Origin: Candidatus Latescibacterota bacterium
GTDB lineage: Bacteria > Latescibacterota > UBA2968 > UBA8231
DNA: 64,000 bases
Direction: 5' to 3'
NCBI GenBank assembly: GCA_965203355.1
Contig: OZ241889.1
Span: 3,168,001-3,232,000, forward strand
Shown: piece by piece, positions 1 through 8,691 of the stretch
How positions within the stretch are numbered: position 1 is the stretch's first letter
Layout of the letters: every line of letters starts with the position of its first letter
The notes under the pieces: model-generated
Told to the model about the DNA's origin: nothing
The model's database searches: none
Seen by the model: the letters and a program-made list of their open reading frames with translations, nothing else
Position numbers and translations under genes: made by a program

Positions 1-1394
1 TACTTTATGACATCACCAGCAGTGTAGATATCTTCAAAGTCTCCATCACCGTTAAAATCAATACGGCCGGGAAAATTATAACTGCTGGCGAAGTGGTTCA
101 CTTGTTCCCTTAAGTCCCCTTTACCCGAGGGCACCACATAGGTATCCAAATAATCGCCATCCCAGGTAAAGTCGATCCCCAAGTCTTTTTCCACCAAGAC
201 GGTCCCCGGCGCGAGGTTGTCGTTTATATCCCCATCGCCGTTGAGATCAAATCCGAACCCTACGTCGTCGTTCCCGCCTCTTCCGCCTCGTTCTTTGATG
301 GTAACGCCGGCGGGTACGATAAATCCATCGCCGTCGAAGGTACCATCCCGGTTAAGGTCTATCCGGACCTGCTTATCCTTATTCATCCGTTTCTTGACCA
401 CCCCCCTCACGGTCTCACTACCGACCCCCAGCTCGATCGTGCCCGCCTTATTATCCGGATCGAGGGTGAACGTCGTCTTCCCAGAAATCTTCCGCTTCGG
501 AACGGTCAGAGTACCCAACCCCCTAAGCGAGTAATCCACATCGCGCGTCAAATCACCGCCAGAAACAACCAATTGGTATTTAAGGTCTGAGCTCGTCAAC
601 GCGCCGCCATCCACCGTCGCCGTCACTTCAATCGAAGTCGCATCCGCCTGCTTGCTGAGCTTGGAAGGCGAAAAAGAGAGATCTATGTCCGTCGGCAAAT
701 GATCGTCGTCAATGATCTCGATAAATGCGTCACATCCAACACTACCTTTAGGTTCATGACAGAGCCGATCATTCTTCTTTAGGTTTACGTTCGATTCTGT
801 ACCTGGAGGGTGACTCAGCCTAAACATGAAAAGAGTATTAGGTAGTTTTTCTTGATCAACTACCGAACTGGGATCCGAGTTAAATGTCTGTGCTCCCCCC
901 CTTGCGTTATAACCCACGACGGCGAATGTATCCTTATCAACCGACACTGTCGCTTTGTCTGGGGCTGGGCCAGTTCCGATATAATCGTTGTCTATCGGGG
1001 TTATGGTTATAGTCCCGGTCGCCTTTTTCTCACCCTTCTTAATCGTCAAAGTGGGTAAGACTGCTGTGAATAACACATTGAGATATTTTCTGGAGAGCGC
1101 ACGCGTAGGGTTAGCTACTCGATCTGTTGCATGGGCACTCGAGTCTGAGAGAACCGCATGAAACTGAACATCTTTATCCGCCGCAGTGCCATCACAGGTT
1201 TCGACTGTAAGCACAACATCTTGCGCCCCACCGTCCTCGCGGATGAACTGCCGGTCCACAGAATACAAGTACTTATAGGTGTTACAGTTCTGAGCCGCAG
1301 CCTCCCCGGCCCAGCCCAACACCAAACTGGCCGCCAGCAAAAAAGGCACAAAAGCCAAGCGCGGCATCGGCACGAACAACTTCGCATGTATCAT
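1..1394 (-). CDS. Large secreted surface protein with Calx-beta/Ig-like repeats (partial, runs off left edge)
   Basis: Not in the ORF track because it has no stop in the window. Manual translation gives GGAGG RBS, ATG at 1394, signal peptide MIHAKLFVPMPRLAFVPFLLAASLVLGWAGEAAAQ, then Calx-beta-like strands (LTIKKGEKKATGTITITPIDND; LTVPKRKISGKTTFTLDP). The frame was open in the stretches I checked. Confidence 0.75.
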   Translation of the reverse strand, partial: MIHAKLFVPMPRLAFVPFLLAASLVLGWAGEAAAQNCNTYKYLYSVDRQFIREDGGAQDVVLTVETCDGTAADKDVQFHAVLSDSSAHATDRVANPTRALSRKYLNVLFTAVLPTLTIKKGEKKATGTITITPIDNDYIGTGPAPDKATVSVDKDTFAVVGYNARGGAQTFNSDPSSVVDQEKLPNTLFMFRLSHPPGTESNVNLKKNDRLCHEPKGSVGCDAFIEIIDDDHLPTDIDLSFSPSKLSKQADATSIEVTATVDGGALTSSDLKYQLVVSGGDLTRDVDYSLRGLGTLTVPKRKISGKTTFTLDPDNKAGTIELGVGSETVRGVVKKRMNKDKQVRIDLNRDGTFDGDGFIVPAGVTIKERGGRGGNDDVGFGFDLNGDGDINDNLAPGTVLVEKDLGIDFTWDGDYLDTYVVPSGKGDLREQVNHFASSYNFPGRIDFNGDGDFEDIYTAGDVIK

Positions 1395-1729
1395 TACTCA
1401 ACCTCCTGAAGGAGAGCATCGCCCAAGGGCGAAAGGGAAAGGGTAGAAGGAAATGGACTTAGCCGTAGAAATAAGCCGTTGTGTTCCTGCGTTTTTGCTA
1501 CCGTTGAGCAAGACGAATCCCGCGCGGCGAGCGCTCGGGCTACGACGTCGCCGGCCGATAACCGCGAGGCTATCGAGGATGGGTTTCGTTTGTGATGTGG
1601 ATGGGTGGTCAGTGGCCAGTGGCCAGTGGTCGGTGGGGCTTACCGACGCGGCCGGGCATAGCAAGGCCTCTTCCCGCTTCCGTAGAGGAAGGGAAGCGAG
1701 GCGAATAGGTTGGCGAGTGAAGCTAGGGC

Positions 1730-1879
1730 TTAATGCCCAAGAAATTCGGGGAGGGGGGGGGGGGGTAAATCATTGTTTTTTAACGATTTATGGCGATTAA
1801 GTCTCGGCGTTATCGCAAGTGTAGAACAAGGCACCGCTCCCGGCGATAGTGTTCTTTGTGCTATTGACGTTGTGCCCAT
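1730..1879 (-). CDS. Putative 49-aa leader ORF containing the poly-C tract
   Basis: MGTTSIAQRTLSPGAVPCSTLAITPRLNRHKSLKNNDLPPPPLPEFLGH*. The AGGA lies only 1 nt before the ATG, so the RBS is weak. Confidence 0.35.
   Translation of the reverse strand: MGTTSIAQRTLSPGAVPCSTLAITPRLNRHKSLKNNDLPPPPLPEFLGH
1753..1765. repeat. G13 homopolymer (C13 on the coding strand), candidate slipped-strand switch
   Basis: Read directly: gggga-ggggggggggggg-taaat. Confidence 0.85.
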
Positions 1880-1963
1880 GTCCTGTTAATCCGATTAAGA
1901 AGGCCGCAAGAGGCGGGGGTCTATACCCCAAACGCGCCGCTGTGCGTTGTGAATTTCATATCT

Positions 1964-1993
1964 AATATACAACATCAGCTAAAAGTTTGTCAA
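1964..1993 (-). promoter_or_regulatory. Sigma70-type promoter for the long leader of the surface-protein gene
   Basis: TTGACA-N18-TATATT on the minus strand. Confidence 0.6.
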
Positions 1994-2110
1994 ATGTAGG
2001 TCGTGGTTTTTGAAACTTAGCTTTACTCCCGTTGGATCGCCCCGGCTCAACCCCAAGCCCGACCTCAACCGTACCGCGACAATTGGAGATTGCAAAATGT
2101 ACCACGACCA

Positions 2111-2142
2111 AAAATAAAGCCCCTGATTGCTCAGGGGCTTTT
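2111..2142 (-). terminator. Intrinsic terminator after tRNA-Val
   Basis: AAAGCCCCTG-agcaat-CAGGGGCTTT followed by ATTTT on the minus strand. Confidence 0.75.
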
Positions 2143-2146
2143 GGCG

Positions 2147-2223
2147 TGGTGGGCGATCCCAGACTCGAACTGGGGACATCCTGCTTGTAAGGCAGGCGCT
2201 CTGACCAACTGAGCTAACCGCCC
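2147..2223 (-). tRNA. tRNA-Val (anticodon TAC)
   Basis: GGGCGGTTAGCTCAGTTGGTCAGAGCG-CCTGC-CTTACAA-GCAGG...GTTCGAGTC...TCGCCCACCA forms a cloverleaf with encoded CCA. Confidence 0.97.
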
Positions 2224-2231
2224 GGCCTTTA

Positions 2232-2260
2232 AGCATAACCATTCCAGCTTTTGGGTGCAA
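2232..2260 (-). promoter_or_regulatory. Promoter of tRNA-Val
   Basis: TTGCAC-N17-TATGCT, ending 8 nt before the tRNA 5' end. Confidence 0.55.
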
Positions 2261-2272
2261 AATGAGCGACGT

Positions 2273-3667
2273 TCATTTCTGCTCATCAGCCGCGACCATT
2301 CGTTCATACTGGGCCATGGCCGCTCCGGCCTCAGCGTCCAACCCTTGTTCCCTATAGACCAAGGCAAGCCCGTAATACGCATCGGCATAGTCTGGGCGAA
2401 TTCGCAGGGCGCGTTGGTAGTACGCCAGGGCCTGATGCGGTTGGCCGTGGCGGAGCTGGGCACTCCCCAAATTGTTGTAGGCCAGCGCGTACGCCGTGTC
2501 AATGCGGACGGCGACCTCGTACATCGCAATGGCTTTGCCAGTATCTCCGAGGCGCAAATACGCATTGCCGAGATTGTTGTAGGCGGGCGCGTAATCCGGC
2601 CGCACGGCGAGACAGCTTCTCAGCGCTCTGATTGCCAAGGCGGGCCTGTTTAGTTTGGCGTATATCCCGGCCAAAGCGTAATGAGCCAGCGCGTTATCCG
2701 GCGCGCGCCGCAGCCGCTCTCTGAGCTGAACCAGATCGTCAGCATGGGGGGCCAACTCTTCAAAGCGGCCCAAGTATTGTTGGGCTTTCCCTTTTTCCCC
2801 CTGCCTGACGTAGAGCGTCCCGAGCTTGAAATAGGGCCGCGCCCGCACCGGATCCAAAGCAATGGCGCGCAGGTAATGCGCCTCGGCGAGCGTCTCGGCG
2901 CGTCGGCGCTCCTCGGCCAACCCCAAGCCTACGTGGGCTTGGGCCGCCTTCGGGTCCAGCGCGAGGGCCGCACCAAAAGCCGCTATGGCTGCATCCACTT
3001 GACCCGCCTTCAGCAGGGCGTGGCCTAGACCTATCTGTGCGCGAGGCCAGTCCGCTCTCAGCGCTATGGCCCGCCTAAACGCCGCAATACCTGCTGGGTA
3101 CTCGCCGAGCCGCTCGGCGTAAACCTGGCCTAGGGCGTAAAATGCCAAACTGTAGCCCGTATCAATACGAGTAGCCTGTTGCAGGGCTGTAATCGCCTCG
3201 TAGTACGCCTTGAGCTTGATGTACGCCAAAGCGAGATTGTAGAACGCTCCAGCATTGTCTGGATCGAGTGTCAGGGCCTGTCGATACCCATCGCGGCTGA
3301 GGGCGTATTCCCCTTGCTCCAGCGACAAACTGGCTAAGTGGCACCAGGCTCCCACGTGCTCGTCGTCCAGCGAGAGGGCGCGGCGGAAGTGGGCTTCAGC
3401 CTGCTCGTACAGCCCCTGTTTGCCGAAGATGTTTCCCAACCCGACCCAAGCGTCCGCCGTCAGCGGATCGATGCTCAAGGCCGTGCGATAGTGATACTCG
3501 GCCCCTTGGTAGTCGCGCGCTTGCAAGAGCAGATCGGCCAGTTGCCCATGGGCTTGGCTATCCTGCGGATGCCGCTCCAGCCACGTTTGATAGTCAGTTT
3601 GGGTCGTGGGGGGACGCTCGCACGCGACCAGCGTGGCCAACACGATCCCCAAGAGAGCACTACCCAT
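2273..3667 (-). CDS. TPR-repeat lipoprotein
   Basis: Lipobox LVAC and about 11-12 TPR motifs (AYNNLG...A...Y..AL..DP). Confidence 0.9.
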   Translation of the reverse strand: MGSALLGIVLATLVACERPPTTQTDYQTWLERHPQDSQAHGQLADLLLQARDYQGAEYHYRTALSIDPLTADAWVGLGNIFGKQGLYEQAEAHFRRALSLDDEHVGAWCHLASLSLEQGEYALSRDGYRQALTLDPDNAGAFYNLALAYIKLKAYYEAITALQQATRIDTGYSLAFYALGQVYAERLGEYPAGIAAFRRAIALRADWPRAQIGLGHALLKAGQVDAAIAAFGAALALDPKAAQAHVGLGLAEERRRAETLAEAHYLRAIALDPVRARPYFKLGTLYVRQGEKGKAQQYLGRFEELAPHADDLVQLRERLRRAPDNALAHYALAGIYAKLNRPALAIRALRSCLAVRPDYAPAYNNLGNAYLRLGDTGKAIAMYEVAVRIDTAYALAYNNLGSAQLRHGQPHQALAYYQRALRIRPDYADAYYGLALVYREQGLDAEAGAAMAQYERMVAADEQK

Positions 3668-3674
3668 CGCTCTA

Positions 3675-6311
3675 TTAGCGCAAGCCGGCGAAGATGGTTA
3701 CAAACGTGAGGAAATTGGTCTCATCGCCTTGTTGCAACGCCCGGCGTTGCCAGCGTACGCCGATCTTGGTAGAAAGTGCGTAGCCTTGATACTCGGAACT
3801 GTTGGTGAATTGAGTGGCCAAGGTCAGGGTCGTGAAATCCTCGACAAAGGTCGGTGGCCGCGGATCGGGCGCTTGCCGTAGATTCCGAAAGACCTCCCAT
3901 TCGATGCCCGACTCCCAGACGAGCTGGCCCGGGATGAGATCACACGTCCCGATTAAGAAAAAAATCTCCGACAGCTCATCGCGCCGCAGCACCAAGGGAT
4001 CCGTCGGGGTTTGGCGGATGTACTGCTGCTTCCACTTGGGCGAAACGGCAATCCCGGCAAACGGCTCGTAGAAGTACTCCGCTCTCAGGATAGCGCCGAG
4101 AAAACTCTCGTTGCGATTTTCCCGCGCCTGATCGCCGCGTTGAAAATAATGGTCCCACTTGACTTTGCCAGACACATTCAGCGGTCGCAGGCGATGCACG
4201 GCGAAGTCGAGGTACGATGTGTTGATCATCGTATGCTGGGCTATCAAGCGGTCCGGCACATCCTGTAACCCCCCGGCCGAAAAGGGAGACTGGACCCACT
4301 GGATCAGCGCATCGGGAATATCGTCGCGGGCGAAGCGCAAAAACTCCATGAAGCGAAACTTAAAGCCGCGCAATGGCAGGTCTTCCTGCCAAGTAAAAAG
4401 CCCATAGCTGGTCTGGTTGCGCCGGGCACTGCCGATCAACCACTCGCGTAGATGCCCGACCACGACCTTAGAACCGGGCTGCATTTCAGCGCCCACGTAG
4501 AGATTGTAGCCCCGGTGGTCGCGTTTGTAGGGATAATCGGGTTCGGTGTCGTTTTCGAGGCGGTCTACGACGGTGTTGTTGTTCATGTCGGTGCCAAAGA
4601 GAAATTCGGGCGGATCGACATTGTAGCGCAGAAAAGGTTCGACGTAATCGGGCTGCAAATTGTCGTTTTGGTTAAAGTCGTTGACCAAATCGTTGTTCTC
4701 GTCGAGGCCGGGAAACACCTCGACATCGGCGGCGCGGGTCGTCTGCTGCCCCGGCACAAAACCGCCCCCGGTAACGCGCCGCCGCCAGTCGGGAAAGCGA
4801 TCTTGGTCGTCGTTGTCCTCGACAAATTCATAGGTAAAATTGAGCTCATCCTCGTAGTCGATAAAACCGCGCTGGTCGGGAATGACCATGGAAGTGCCGT
4901 AGTTCGGATCCATGGAGAAGGCCTCGCCATAGGCAAACCAAGGATAGGCCAAGCGCGAGGCGGTGACGTAAAAAGCCTCGGCGCGATCAGACGCTAGCGC
5001 CTGCCTCTTGACGATATTCTGATTGGGAAACTTGCGGTGGTGGCGGTTGACGTTGAATTCGGAGCGGAGATTGAATCCGGCGAGTTCGGAAACTTCAAAC
5101 GTAAAACCCATGATCTCGTTGGCCGTCGGCAGGCCGTACTGGAAGCGGACGACCTGTTGATTGGAGCCATCGCTGATATTGCCAGGGCTGCGCTTGACCG
5201 GCAAGAAAACCGTCTCGCCGGTGAAGTTAGTCTGCATGTTGGACGTTACCTCTATGCGAAAATCATTGGCCACCACCAGCTCGATATCGATTTTGCGGGC
5301 TTCTTTGAAATCGCCGATCTGATCCTGTACACCCGGGACAAAATCGCGCTCGATGTCGTAACTGAGCGTCAGGACATCGCCGCCGTTGGCTTCGAGCAAG
5401 CCCTGCCGCCGCGTCCCTCCGTCGATCGAAGGTTTTATTTCCGGGTGCTCGACATCGTCGACGAAGATCCGCTCGCGGAACAGCAGCGCACCGCCGGTAT
5501 TGTCGGCGGGCGAGTCGTCGCTGAGACGGACGACGATGCGGCGGACGTTTTCCGCATTCAAGCGCCCGCCCAAGACGCCCTTGAGCGAATTCTCCTCAAA
5601 GCTCAAGCGGCTGTTGCCGTGGTTGGCATTGACATACGTCAATCCCAGCGTGGCAAAATCGCCGACTTGGGCGACGCCGCGCAAGCCGTACAAATTGGTA
5701 AAGACCGTCTCTCTCGCTTCGGAGATTTCGCTGTCGAGACGCTGGACGGCCGGATTGTCAATGCGCGAAGCAATGAAGGTCAAAGCGTATTTATCGGACT
5801 GCATATCCCACTGGATACCGTCGAAGAGCGGCTTCGAAAAAGTCATCGGCGTCAGCGTCGTCCGCAGTTGTTCGCCGACGGTCAGGGCGGTATAAAATTG
5901 CCCTTTGGCAGCCGAGGATATCAGGACGCGGTTAAACCAACTATTGAAGCGGGGGTTTTTGAAAATACTGCTGCCGAAATCGAGCGGGTGTTCCTGACGC
6001 CAGTCGTAGATGCGCCAACCGCGGGTGATGTAGTTGCCGTACAAATCGTAATAGCGATCGCCTTCCAAGAAGAGGTTCACGTAGCGCTGGTAGTTGTCCC
6101 GGGCGTAGTTGGTGTACTCGTAGGTCTTCCAGCCATAGAGATAAAGCAGCGTCTGGGGCACGTACCACTTGCGCAGCACCGGACTCAGCGACTCAAAATC
6201 GACCGGCGTTCCGGTCGCTCGGTACGGATTGAAGAATCCGCTCTGCAAGTCGGCTTTGAGCGCCAAGGGCAAGAGAGCGAGAAAGACCAAAGACCAAATG
6301 ATTTTATTCAT
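3675..6311 (-). CDS. Large secreted or outer-membrane hypothetical protein with acidic Ca-binding-like loops
   Basis: Probable start MNKIIWSLVFLALLPLALKA (signal peptide); DNDDQD, DENND and DMNNN motifs; amphipathic beta-strand-like C-terminal part. Confidence 0.75.
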   Translation of the reverse strand: MNKIIWSLVFLALLPLALKADLQSGFFNPYRATGTPVDFESLSPVLRKWYVPQTLLYLYGWKTYEYTNYARDNYQRYVNLFLEGDRYYDLYGNYITRGWRIYDWRQEHPLDFGSSIFKNPRFNSWFNRVLISSAAKGQFYTALTVGEQLRTTLTPMTFSKPLFDGIQWDMQSDKYALTFIASRIDNPAVQRLDSEISEARETVFTNLYGLRGVAQVGDFATLGLTYVNANHGNSRLSFEENSLKGVLGGRLNAENVRRIVVRLSDDSPADNTGGALLFRERIFVDDVEHPEIKPSIDGGTRRQGLLEANGGDVLTLSYDIERDFVPGVQDQIGDFKEARKIDIELVVANDFRIEVTSNMQTNFTGETVFLPVKRSPGNISDGSNQQVVRFQYGLPTANEIMGFTFEVSELAGFNLRSEFNVNRHHRKFPNQNIVKRQALASDRAEAFYVTASRLAYPWFAYGEAFSMDPNYGTSMVIPDQRGFIDYEDELNFTYEFVEDNDDQDRFPDWRRRVTGGGFVPGQQTTRAADVEVFPGLDENNDLVNDFNQNDNLQPDYVEPFLRYNVDPPEFLFGTDMNNNTVVDRLENDTEPDYPYKRDHRGYNLYVGAEMQPGSKVVVGHLREWLIGSARRNQTSYGLFTWQEDLPLRGFKFRFMEFLRFARDDIPDALIQWVQSPFSAGGLQDVPDRLIAQHTMINTSYLDFAVHRLRPLNVSGKVKWDHYFQRGDQARENRNESFLGAILRAEYFYEPFAGIAVSPKWKQQYIRQTPTDPLVLRRDELSEIFFLIGTCDLIPGQLVWESGIEWEVFRNLRQAPDPRPPTFVEDFTTLTLATQFTNSSEYQGYALSTKIGVRWQRRALQQGDETNFLTFVTIFAGLR

Positions 6312-6363
6312 CGCGCGGATCTCCCGTATTGATAGCCGCTTGGCCCGGCGACGCCCGGCCCGC

Positions 6364-8691
6364 CTAATAGACCACGTGGATGATGCGCTGACGCCGCTCG
6401 GTTGTAGCATCGGTCGCTAGTTTGGCGTCCAGAATGTACATACCGGGCGGCAACAATAGACCGCTCTCATCCAGCCCGTCCCACTCATAGCGCGTCTGCT
6501 CCACCTGTTCGGCGTTAGCGACTAGCGCACCACTCAAGTCGTAGATCGCGACCGTGGGTTGGGCCGTGGTTTTTACCACCAGCAGGCGTAGCTGCAATCT
6601 ATCGTTGATGCCGTCTCCATTGGGCGAGATCGCGGCCGCGGGCATCTCCAGGGCGCGGATGAGGTGCTTTTCCTGGGCGATCTCGGGCACGAACACGGTC
6701 AAAGCACCTAGGGCTTCTGGCTGAATCCCTTGGCGAATGTCGGGCTGCGTCGTAGTGCTGACCCAAGCGTCAAAAGCAGCCGCATCGGTCAGCAGGCGCA
6801 GCGGCAGCTCAACTTCGATGCGGTCCCCGCGGACCGGTTCGGGCAAGTCGATCGCGACCGCATCCCCGCTGGCCTCCACCTGCAAGGGCTCAACGCGGCG
6901 ATCCCCTATCCGCAACAACACCTCGCCTTCAAGGGCACTCGGCAAATCGAACGCGAGGCGGTTAAAACCCCGATCAGCCGGTCTAGCGCGACCGCTGAGG
7001 CGGAAGGTAAAAACCGTCAGCGAATCGAGGGCCGCCTCGCGCGGCGAGATGCTGGCGAAAACCCCGCCGCCGATGAGCGGATCGTCAAAGTCGAGGGCTA
7101 GCTCGCGCAGCGTCGGGGCGACCGCGGGATTTTCGGTCTGTAGGCGCACCTCCATTTGGACGAATCGCCGCGGCGTGGGCGAGCGGAAAACTTCCCCAGA
7201 TTCCTGGTAGGCCGAGCTCCACGCGCTCCAGTCGGCCCCCGCTTTCGGCACTATTACTTCGGGCAACTTCTGGCTAGCCGGCAGTTTGTCCCAACGTCCT
7301 TTGGGAACCTCGCGACCATTTTTGTCGTAATAGAATATCTCCTCGTCGAGCGTATTGCCGGTGCGCGTGCGAATTGCTAGGCGCGTCTCGGCTGTTGTGT
7401 CCGCCTCCCAGCGCAGCCGGCGCAGGCTTTTGGCCCCTTCCAGATCGATAAAATTCGAGGTCATTGCCACCTCGGCTGGATGGCCGGCCCCGTAGAGGAA
7501 AATCTCGAACAAATGGAAAACGGTTTGCCTGTTGAGCGGAGATTCGTGGTGATAGAACAGATAGCGCACCTTGCGCGCGGGAAAGCGGAAATCAAAATTG
7601 CGGTTTCTCGTGCCCGCACTGCTCAGGGTTTCGTTATCGACGAAGCTGAGCAACTGGTAATCGACCGGACTCTGAAGCCGCTCTTCCCCTTGGGTGGGAA
7701 TCGGCGTTCCGTCTGAGGTCAAGAGTTCAAAACTGGACTGATTCCGGTACGAATTCACCCCCAGCGTGGCAAATCCCGGCGGCGGCTCCACCATCGTCAA
7801 TTGATCGATCCAGAAGGTGGCTCCCAGATCCCATTCAAACCAATCGCCTTTAGCGCGCCAGTCGAGGTCGCCCCGCGAAGTCAAGGTCCACCACGTGGCC
7901 GCCGTTCCGTCCATGATGTTGGCGATAGTGCGCGGGTCGCGTCCAGTCCGTATGGCGCCGCCCCGCTCGATAGTCCCCGGGGCCATGTTGTCGCCTATGG
8001 CCTCGACCGCGACCGCAGCCAGTGCCGCATCCAGACTTTTAGCGTGCGCGACGACGCGCACGTACTGGATGGACCGATACGCCAAGGTATCGCTGGTCGC
8101 CAAATACGCGCCGGTGGCGTTGCCCAATTCCGGCGTCGCCAGGTCGTACTCTACCACCGTCTCCCGGCTGGGCTGGGTCGTGCCGCCCACTCGATCGTAG
8201 CGGAAAACGTCCTCGCCGGTGAGAAAAGACGTTCCCTCGGTGACGAAAACGGAAAACTCGCGCAAAGGCCGCGCCCCCTCGGTATCGGGAAAGATCAGTC
8301 GGATCTTTTTAGCTTGGACGAGGCGCCCCAAATCGACTTCGATCCACCAATCGTCGAGTGGGGCCGCTTGGCTGGGTTGCCACCAAGTAGTGGCCGCGCC
8401 ATCGAGAATGTGGGGGGCTTGGTCCAGGTGGGTACCCGCACCGCGAATTCCTCCCTGCACCAATTGCCCCTTGGCATTTGGATGGAAGAATTCGGCCGCG
8501 TTGGCAACGGCATCTATATCGCGGCGAAAACGCCTCAGCCCCACGCTGCCATCGGCCGCCAGCGCTAGCACCCCTTGGGGAAAAGCCCATTGCCGCCACT
8601 GGTCTTGGCTGTTTATAAGCAGCGTTCCAGCCTCTATTTCCCCGCCGGGGAAAAGCACCAACAGCGTCAACCAGTACGTCCGTGGCAACAT
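6364..8691 (-). CDS. Secreted protein with discoidin/F5-8-like domains and C-terminal FlgD-Ig/CHU_C-like domain
   Basis: Signal peptide; DG..T.WW...WIEVDLG jelly-roll motifs; C-terminus SPNGDGIND...IYDLSG...WDGLDE...LPPGMY. Confidence 0.8.
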   Translation of the reverse strand: MLPRTYWLTLLVLFPGGEIEAGTLLINSQDQWRQWAFPQGVLALAADGSVGLRRFRRDIDAVANAAEFFHPNAKGQLVQGGIRGAGTHLDQAPHILDGAATTWWQPSQAAPLDDWWIEVDLGRLVQAKKIRLIFPDTEGARPLREFSVFVTEGTSFLTGEDVFRYDRVGGTTQPSRETVVEYDLATPELGNATGAYLATSDTLAYRSIQYVRVVAHAKSLDAALAAVAVEAIGDNMAPGTIERGGAIRTGRDPRTIANIMDGTAATWWTLTSRGDLDWRAKGDWFEWDLGATFWIDQLTMVEPPPGFATLGVNSYRNQSSFELLTSDGTPIPTQGEERLQSPVDYQLLSFVDNETLSSAGTRNRNFDFRFPARKVRYLFYHHESPLNRQTVFHLFEIFLYGAGHPAEVAMTSNFIDLEGAKSLRRLRWEADTTAETRLAIRTRTGNTLDEEIFYYDKNGREVPKGRWDKLPASQKLPEVIVPKAGADWSAWSSAYQESGEVFRSPTPRRFVQMEVRLQTENPAVAPTLRELALDFDDPLIGGGVFASISPREAALDSLTVFTFRLSGRARPADRGFNRLAFDLPSALEGEVLLRIGDRRVEPLQVEASGDAVAIDLPEPVRGDRIEVELPLRLLTDAAAFDAWVSTTTQPDIRQGIQPEALGALTVFVPEIAQEKHLIRALEMPAAAISPNGDGINDRLQLRLLVVKTTAQPTVAIYDLSGALVANAEQVEQTRYEWDGLDESGLLLPPGMYILDAKLATDATTERRQRIIHVVY

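Follow-up and report, generated by a model that had tools for sequence, protein, structure and literature searches.

Surface genes of Neisseria, Campylobacter and Helicobacter carry poly-G or poly-C tracts in their 5′ coding regions, and in Neisseria hpuAB and siaD an upstream frameshift exerts polarity, in siaD with Rho-dependent intracistronic termination. To our knowledge, phase variation driven by repeats has been described almost exclusively in cultured pathogens, with the repeat either in a promoter or inside the regulated gene. Here we analyse a run of 13 cytosines (C13) in the leader of a putative surface-protein gene of Candidatus Latescibacterota bacterium (GenBank assembly GCA_965203355.1, contig OZ241889.1, positions 3,168,001 to 3,232,000; this stretch of 64,000 nt is hereafter called the window). 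The run lies in an upstream open reading frame (uORF) that is separate from the gene; beyond it two reading frames soon close, and the third stays open up to the start of the gene. On balance we favour the reading that C13 supplies the variable part of a modular cassette for phase variation whose state is relayed by translation of the uORF, most likely, to judge from the sequence, through coupling to the gene, through prevention of premature termination, or through both.

With coding-region homopolymer switches the cassette shares a long tract of G or C whose length differs from copy to copy, a three-frame logic, and surface or secreted proteins and glycosyltransferases as targets; it differs in that the tract is placed in a separate uORF and not in the regulated gene, although a set of related ‘direct’ loci, described below, is of exactly the coding-region kind. 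The likeness to hpuAB and siaD would lie in polarity, in that a premature stop after a homopolymer shift lowers downstream expression on the same transcript, but there a functional gene bears the tract, whereas here the bearer is apparently a dedicated, functionless relay with a two-stop module and a stop/start junction.

Regulation within the transcribed leader is also described. Attenuation by Rho or intrinsic termination that depends on a uORF (tnaC and others) is reviewed in PMC12360218; translation of a leader ORF decides there, as it would here, how far RNA is exposed to termination, and here too the leader is rich in C and relatives possess rho, but the systems described so far respond to a metabolite or to stress by ribosome stalling, whereas the signal here would be a heritable, stochastic change in DNA length. 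Also treated in that review are E. coli fim and C. difficile flgB, whose invertible leaders are acted on by Rho; these likewise combine a stochastic DNA switch in a transcribed leader with an action after initiation, but use site-specific inversion, with no homopolymer and no reading frame. The G-repeat in the H. pylori tlpB leader, targeted by RepG (PMC8295292), is again a variable homopolymer in a long 5′ leader, but it acts by small-RNA pairing graded with length and involves no uORF, frame logic or stop/start junction. In our literature search we met neither a description of a dedicated uORF whose repeat tract passes its frame on to a downstream gene nor any account of phase variation in Latescibacterota. 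The available portions of PMC12360218, PMC3711429 and PMC12721329 do not describe the dedicated-uORF relay layout, and the terms ‘translational coupling’, ‘upstream ORF’, ‘UTR’, ‘untranslated’, ‘polar effect’ and ‘Rho’ do not occur in the available portion of a 2025 review (PMC11868660). We would class the leader cassette as a variant of slipped-strand phase variation with a layout that is new to the literature searched.

Layout of the C13 locus

C13 is the sole G or C run of at least 8 nt in the 64 kb window, and the tract itself is far from chance. The leader measures about 570 nt between a promoter-like site and the main gene, which sits behind a GGAGG Shine-Dalgarno sequence. Its elements, together with the gene, are listed below in the direction of transcription, with G001 denoting a complete 4.5 Mb Candidatus Latescibacterota bacterium genome that was reached by a search with the main protein.

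1964–1993, minus strand: promoter-like site, TTGACA (1993–1988), 18 nt spacer, TATATT (1969–1964); 11/12 matches
1730–1879, minus strand: uORF in the C13 state, ATG at 1879, 38 codons, the tract read as Pro4, LPEFLGH, TAA at 1732–1730
1766–1792, minus strand: conserved core motif CATAAATCGTTAAAAAACAATGATTTA, directly 5′ of the tract
1753–1765, minus strand: poly-C tract C13, followed by T and CCCC
1723–1747, minus strand: two-stop module GAATTTCTTGGGCATTAAGCCCTAG, in which TAA at 1732–1730 and TAG at 1725–1723 close two frames
1398–1769, minus strand: relay frame, open from 1769 to 1401, TGA at 1400–1398
1509–1531, minus strand: weak terminator-like hairpin (CTCGCCGCGCGGG with ATTCGTCTTG) within the relay frame; the block around it is conserved in G001
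1402–1414, minus strand: CTCC (1414–1411), loop TTCA and Shine-Dalgarno GGAGG (1406–1402), folded by prediction into a small hairpin over the ribosome-binding site (RBS)
3–1394, minus strand: main gene, ATG at 1394, signal peptide MIHAKLFVPMPRLAFVPFLLAASLVLGWAGEAAAQN; it leaves the window after 464 aa

In the C13 state the uORF comprises 49 codons (49 aa). After the tract, two frames stop within 6 and 9 codons and the third is open for 117 codons, the whole leader holding 6, 0 and 2 stop triplets across its three frames. Only tracts of C11, C14, C17 and the like lead into this relay frame; C14 or C11 (or C17) would fuse it with the uORF into an ORF of 160 aa, whose TGA lies within GGA GGT TGA GTA ATG, 3 nt before the main ATG. 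An initial annotation, made from the window alone, had proposed a promoter about 570 nt upstream, an ORF from ATG 1879 across C13 to 1730, a single open frame after the tract that ends on the RBS 3 nt before the surface-gene ATG, and fusion of the two pieces to about 160 aa with C14 or C11; every one of these elements is present in the sequence. The tract lies inside an ATG-started ORF, presumably translated, whose end point depends on tract length. The sequences show this frame logic, and its consequence for expression is what we infer: the window copy, which is in the short state, is probably OFF, and C14, C11 or C17 would give the fused state.

Within the relay frame a tandem repeat, CCACTGG CCACTGG CCACTGA (1603–1628, minus strand), is an insertion relative to the G001 copies, and the frame stays open across it. 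Pfam searches with the uORF, the relay-frame product, an antisense ORF (1453–1800) and the 464 aa of the main gene that the window contains gave nothing above cut-offs. An Rfam search of positions 1–4000 of the window left the leader without a match; apart from the tRNA described next, it returned two matches below the gathering score, on or beside that tRNA. Upstream of the cassette lie the following features, and the block shared with G001 begins right after the terminator of the tRNA gene.

1994–2098, minus strand: block common to the window and the G001 leader copies, from an alignment with 13 G001 copies
2116–2141, minus strand: strong terminator of tRNA-Val (2141–2116)
2147–2223, minus strand: tRNA-Val(tac) (2223–2147), directly upstream of the leader cassette
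2273–3667, minus strand: TPR-repeat gene (3667–2273), upstream neighbour of tRNA-Val(tac)

The TPR gene is adjoined by an ORF of 911 aa (3675–6410, minus strand) with an N-terminal hydrophobic segment and no Pfam match.

Related cassettes in Latescibacterota

The window alone would not carry the interpretation, because shuffled sequence often yields an open frame: in 14.3% of dinucleotide-preserving shuffles of the leader some frame is open to the RBS (p = 0.14), a point against the proposed relay, and in 10.5% an open frame ends ≤25 nt from the start. The observation becomes significant only through relatives. The main protein has three paralogues in G001 (42–44% identical), two of them behind a window-like leader with C15 and C16. 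Searching G001 with the window leader gave 17 matches at about 70–76% nucleotide identity, one short piece reaching 93%, which after duplicate removal resolved into 13 near-full leader copies and one divergent copy. Their tracts measure C12, 13, 13, 14, 14, 14, 15, 15, 16, 16, 16, 18, 19 and 21 between almost invariant flanks, and these 14 sites account for all C or G runs of at least 12 nt in that genome.

A pattern made of the core motif plus eight C was then scanned over 167 genomes of the phylum to which G001 belongs and matched 78 times in 17 of them, against 3 matches for a reversed-pattern control; copies per genome were 28 in G145, 14 in G001, 11 in G140, 5 in G141, 4 in G138 and 3 in G144. 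On metagenome contigs the pattern found 2 loci, of which L021 is related and L022 is a chance match inside an unrelated gene. Our counts refer to 73 distinct loci, to which, besides the window, 11 related genomes and a single metagenome contig contribute. Before counting we dropped L022 as unrelated, three partial loci without a tract (L003, L017, L020), six duplicates (L011, L016, L019, L031, L042, L048) and two in which the motif was missed by the pattern (L037, L081); L023 and L041 look atypical and stay among the 73. The initial annotation had called for a check on whether poly-C leaders whose frame runs out at the RBS also precede surface-protein genes of relatives; these loci show clearly that they do. 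G138 holds 10 C or G runs of at least 12 nt, some of 26 nt, and the core pattern found only 3 of them; since most were missed, cassettes with variant flanks exist and the census is an undercount. In sequencing run X1, 190 contigs match the 1 kb around the leader (window 1300–2300) at 90–100% likeness, and their summed depth over the leader is about 8–40x that of the unique flank at 2252–2300, which suggests that the leader is multi-copy in the source community.

The loci share one plan: a promoter-like site, an ATG-started uORF, the core, the poly-C tract, stops that soon close two frames, and a remaining frame that leads to the main start. In 12 loci that belong to different families, a perfect TTGACA together with TAnnnT precedes the tract by 192–228 nt, and an ATG-started ORF enters the tract in 69/73 loci. 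The core consensus directly 5′ of the tract is C[ag]TAAGTCgTTaAAAAACAA..A.TTA (73 loci), tract length runs from 7 to 24 nt with 14 the commonest value, and the stop module follows the pattern ..AAATTCT.. then TAAGCNCTAR, which places stops in two frames. Both non-relay frames are closed within 12 codons in 37/73 loci, and the third stays open for 60–130 codons. L035 carries, after a C21 tract, a decayed second core (TGTAAGTCTTTAAAAAACAGTAAGTTA, then TCCCATC in place of the C run), which suggests, on the face of its sequence, a tandem duplication followed by tract decay.

Two arrangements can be told apart by where the tract stands. In the window and 46 other loci it lies in a separate uORF 200–400 nt upstream of the regulated gene. 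In the 13 direct loci (e.g. L021, L043) core and tract precede a signal peptide or lipobox immediately and in frame with it; by hand count 7/13 are in frame in the assemblies, and this form is a classical coding-region switch. Where a relay exists, its junction with the main gene takes several shapes: an ATGA or GTGA overlap (G001 copies, L032, L034/L052, L036/L045, L040), TGA, 3 nt and ATG (window, L026–L028), a stop 13–22 nt inside the main ORF (lipoprotein genes of G138, G145 and G140), or a stop 13–22 nt before the start (L051, L029). When the loci were grouped by downstream protein into 16 families with one representative each, the third-frame stop fell ≤25 nt from the main start in 12/16 families, against 2.4 expected from dinucleotide shuffles (Poisson-binomial P = 9e-9), a count that is tilted upward by the choice by hand of the families and of some main start codons; without counting two families that lack a Shine-Dalgarno sequence at the start, it is 10/16 (P = 4e-6).

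What is conserved in these leaders is the open path and a nucleotide motif; the uORF and relay peptides show no protein-like constraint. In the G001 and G145 families, respectively, variable columns are spread evenly over the three codon positions, numbering 13/21/14 and 19/14/13 in the first part of the uORF and 29/37/32 and 17/28/20 in the relay frame, and synonymous to non-synonymous changes stand at about 1:3, which is the expectation without constraint. Homologous leader bases are read in different frames in the window and in G001, with different amino acids and an open frame in both. The same terminal stop is reached through another frame after small indels in L008 and L012 (G001) and in L061 and L070 (G145).

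These data also bear on the view that the cassettes form a repeated family, mutable in the tract but without any part in regulation, their open frame being a relic of an older N-terminal extension and the junction a by-product. Per-locus statistics are weak, copies within one genome are related and hence not independent, the direct form exists, and a protein search with the relay-frame product found no relatives among predicted proteins of 67–216 aa, all of which would suit this view. It does not account for a leader that is about 72% identical in nucleotides between the window and G001 where the downstream proteins share 42–44%, for an open path that survives frame-changing indels, for the excess at family level, or for the fact that all long C runs of G001 sit in cassettes, and we hold it to be unlikely.

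A switch that works through promoter spacing, as in Bordetella fim, would involve a second promoter, with the tract separating its −10 element from an activator site or a −35 element. An A-rich segment does precede the tract and reads TTGAAA in some genomes. However, the window has no promoter-like site around or after the tract, and on the same strand none other than that at 1993–1964 was found up to the main ATG; among 63 leaders a weak site between tract and main start occurs in only 5, four of them the same G001 site; the range of 7–24 nt is too wide for a spacer; and the 27 nt that separate tract and ATG in L021 contain no −10-like hexamer. We regard this arrangement as highly improbable. 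A tract inside a promoter spacer of the Bordetella fim or Neisseria porA/opc type was likewise rejected, since the only promoter-like site, from which a start near 1957 is predicted, lies about 200 nt upstream of the tract and ahead of the uORF, which upholds the placement of the tract outside the promoter in the initial annotation. Inside the relay frame of L004, L005, L008 and L013, roughly 100 nt ahead of the main ATG, stands a weak promoter-like sequence, TTGAGA-17-AAAAAT; all four are G001 copies, and the window lacks the segment that carries it.

Because a poly-C run codes for proline whichever frame is used, ribosome stalling at the tract inevitably accompanies the design and may contribute to regulation. 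A regulatory peptide that stalls on polyproline and responds to EF-P or proline supply, with differences in tract length only incidental, is nonetheless a very unlikely account. The tract does supply four to eight prolines in every frame, and uORFs with proline codons that govern Rho-dependent or intrinsic attenuation are known (for instance Salmonella mgtL/mgtP). For such a peptide, however, three to five prolines suffice and frame logic is superfluous, and it predicts neither the three-frame design nor a spread from C7 to C24 among near-identical copies. Stalling of this kind is compatible with the uORF relay that we propose.

The core raises a question of its own. The 27-nt core (1766–1792, minus strand; L001–L084), CATAAGTCGTTAAAAAACAA....TTA, is kept across families, and the rare TTA always abuts the tract. 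In the G141 loci and L040 a different frame runs through it, and conservation that holds despite such a change of reading frame must be conservation of nucleotides. It may be a binding site or an element related to slippage (a slippage enhancer). Ribosomal frameshifting by −1 at A_AAA_AAC in the core was considered and discarded, the first base being A, G or C in different genomes.

Conservation of the core as nucleotides despite frame differences would suit an action at the RNA level without translation, in which a G-rich small RNA or a protein binds the poly-C run and its length tunes the strength, and so would the poor Shine-Dalgarno sequence of the uORF. Length-dependent targeting of a leader homopolymer by a small RNA is published (PMC8295292, PMC12721329). 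This explanation leaves the two-stop module, the entry of an ATG-started ORF into nearly every tract, the family-level junctions and the direct in-frame form unexplained; neither an Rfam match nor covariation supports it, and a partner RNA was not searched for. A consensus structure of the window and nine G001 leaders had a covariation term of +2.57 with only 5/132 pairs changed on both sides, 20 diverse uORF regions gave no consensus pairs, and folds of the 5′ end were no more stable than those of shuffles. We think it improbable that the tract acts in this way. By eye, a stem GCCAUCGC ... GCGAUGGC with variants such as GCUGGCGCC ... GGCGCCAGC seems to keep its pairing in L026, L029, L038 and the G001 copies; such covarying stems in the 5′ parts of the uORFs are unsupported, since RNAalifold on MAFFT alignments did not recover them.

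Proposed switch and its sign

Under the uORF relay, each event of slipped-strand mispairing would lengthen or shorten the tract by at least one base; C13 is long enough for this, slipping needing about 8 nt or more, and the related tracts measure 7–24 nt. Variable tract length between conserved flanks, seen among the G001 copies and between L026 and L028, speaks for such a switch. In two of every three length classes, ribosomes would leave the uORF about 20–30 nt past the tract, and the long C-rich leader, then untranslated, would be exposed to premature termination by Rho or at sites made of a hairpin and a run of U. In the remaining class, ribosomes would cross the whole leader, sustain transcription, terminate at the main start and possibly re-initiate there, so that the fused state would turn the gene of a surface or secreted protein ON. 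The products of the uORF would have no function, only the act of translation mattering.

The leader RNA offers several features on which such a relay could act. C makes up 36% and G 23% of the 358 nt that follow the tract in the window, and the leader C/G ratio exceeds 1.2 in 11/15 representatives and is about 0.93–1.04 in the other 4. A rho gene (TIGR00767) scores above cut-off in G001, G145 and G140, the three relatives tested, and terminator-like sites (a hairpin with a U-rich tail) inside the relay frame number 9 in the leaders of 18 representatives, against 2.8 in shuffles. The main genes carry strong, well-spaced Shine-Dalgarno sequences (AGGAG or GGAGG), which in predicted ensembles are mostly paired, the probability of being unpaired ranging from 0.00 to 0.56.

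We favour short = OFF and fused = ON because of the 200–400 nt of untranslated C-rich leader, the presence of rho, the terminator-like hairpins and the overlap of stop and start. The opposite sign, in which fused-state ribosomes over the RBS and start block initiation (OFF) and short states free the main Shine-Dalgarno sequence (ON), keeps a small probability and seems to us rather unlikely; in its favour, Shine-Dalgarno masking is non-specific, and the main genes, already equipped with strong Shine-Dalgarno sequences, may do without coupling. It would also suit the tract lengths in the assemblies: only 8/46 relay-type loci are in the fused state (2/11 in G001, 2/15 in G145), which is under one third (binomial P = 0.013), a deficit that fits ‘few copies ON’ and ‘fused disfavoured’ equally well. 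Stop/start overlaps such as ATGA, however, are the standard layout of positive coupling and re-initiation; early stops in both other frames followed by a C-rich untranslated leader fit termination in the short state better; and in large variable families of surface proteins few copies are usually ON.

Several further points weigh against the uORF relay, in addition to the chance level at the single locus, the hand-tilted coupling count and the ambiguity of the fused-state deficit. The junction is absent in 4/16 families. Occlusion of the Shine-Dalgarno sequence is no greater than with shuffled upstream sequence (Fisher combined p = 0.39), and the Shine-Dalgarno-like sequence of the uORF itself is weak or badly spaced, in agreement with a caveat about the spacing of the leader RBS that the initial annotation had attached to its proposal. 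Of that proposal, a switch relayed by the uORF with termination or an occluded RBS in the OFF state, the layout is borne out and the family-level junction supports it; the occlusion, though predicted, does not rise above what shuffled sequence gives. The favoured reading offers no reason for the nucleotide conservation of the core. The length differences are drawn from comparisons of genomes and paralogues rather than of cells in one population, as with L026 (C12) and L028 (C14), which come from different genomes and are 98.4% identical over 190 nt downstream. Assembled homopolymer lengths may contain errors, possible slippage of RNA polymerase on long C runs could blur the DNA state, and among the Logan contigs (about 80–180 nt) listed over the leader none spans 1753–1765, which leaves them silent on tract length.

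Targets and meaning

The products of the downstream genes that have a Pfam match are mostly secreted or surface proteins, or enzymes that modify the surface. In the family of the window gene, the 1425-aa product of L002 has He_PIG and FlgD_ig above cut-offs and a C-terminal sorting-domain match below cut-off. Other targets contain Ig-like, PEGA, fn3 and cadherin-like domains, leucine-rich repeats (LRR) in lipoproteins, a WD40 propeller, and LDL-receptor class B repeats with dockerin, or are an M23 peptidase, HlyD, a dynamin-like GTPase or a PQQ dehydrogenase; the enzymes include a family-2 glycosyltransferase (GT2) and an arylsulfotransferase. The regulated genes are typical targets of phase variation. 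That a portable cassette stands before dozens of unrelated surface and secreted genes in a clade of Latescibacterota, and that its tract length sets them ON or OFF by way of a functionless ORF, is a generalisation to which we would give about even chances.

If the favoured reading is true, the cassette would add a third site of action for repeat-based switches, besides promoters and the coding region of the regulated gene itself, and with it a new wiring in which the frame of a uORF decides both the ribosome cover of the leader and the coupling to the main gene. The layout is compact enough for direct reporter testing, and its sequence signature would serve for finding phase-variable genes in metagenome-assembled genomes. 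The genes behind these leaders would be the first phase-variable set described in this uncultured phylum, and would point to variable surface repertoires of LRR, WD40, fn3, cadherin-like and Ig-like proteins in its members.

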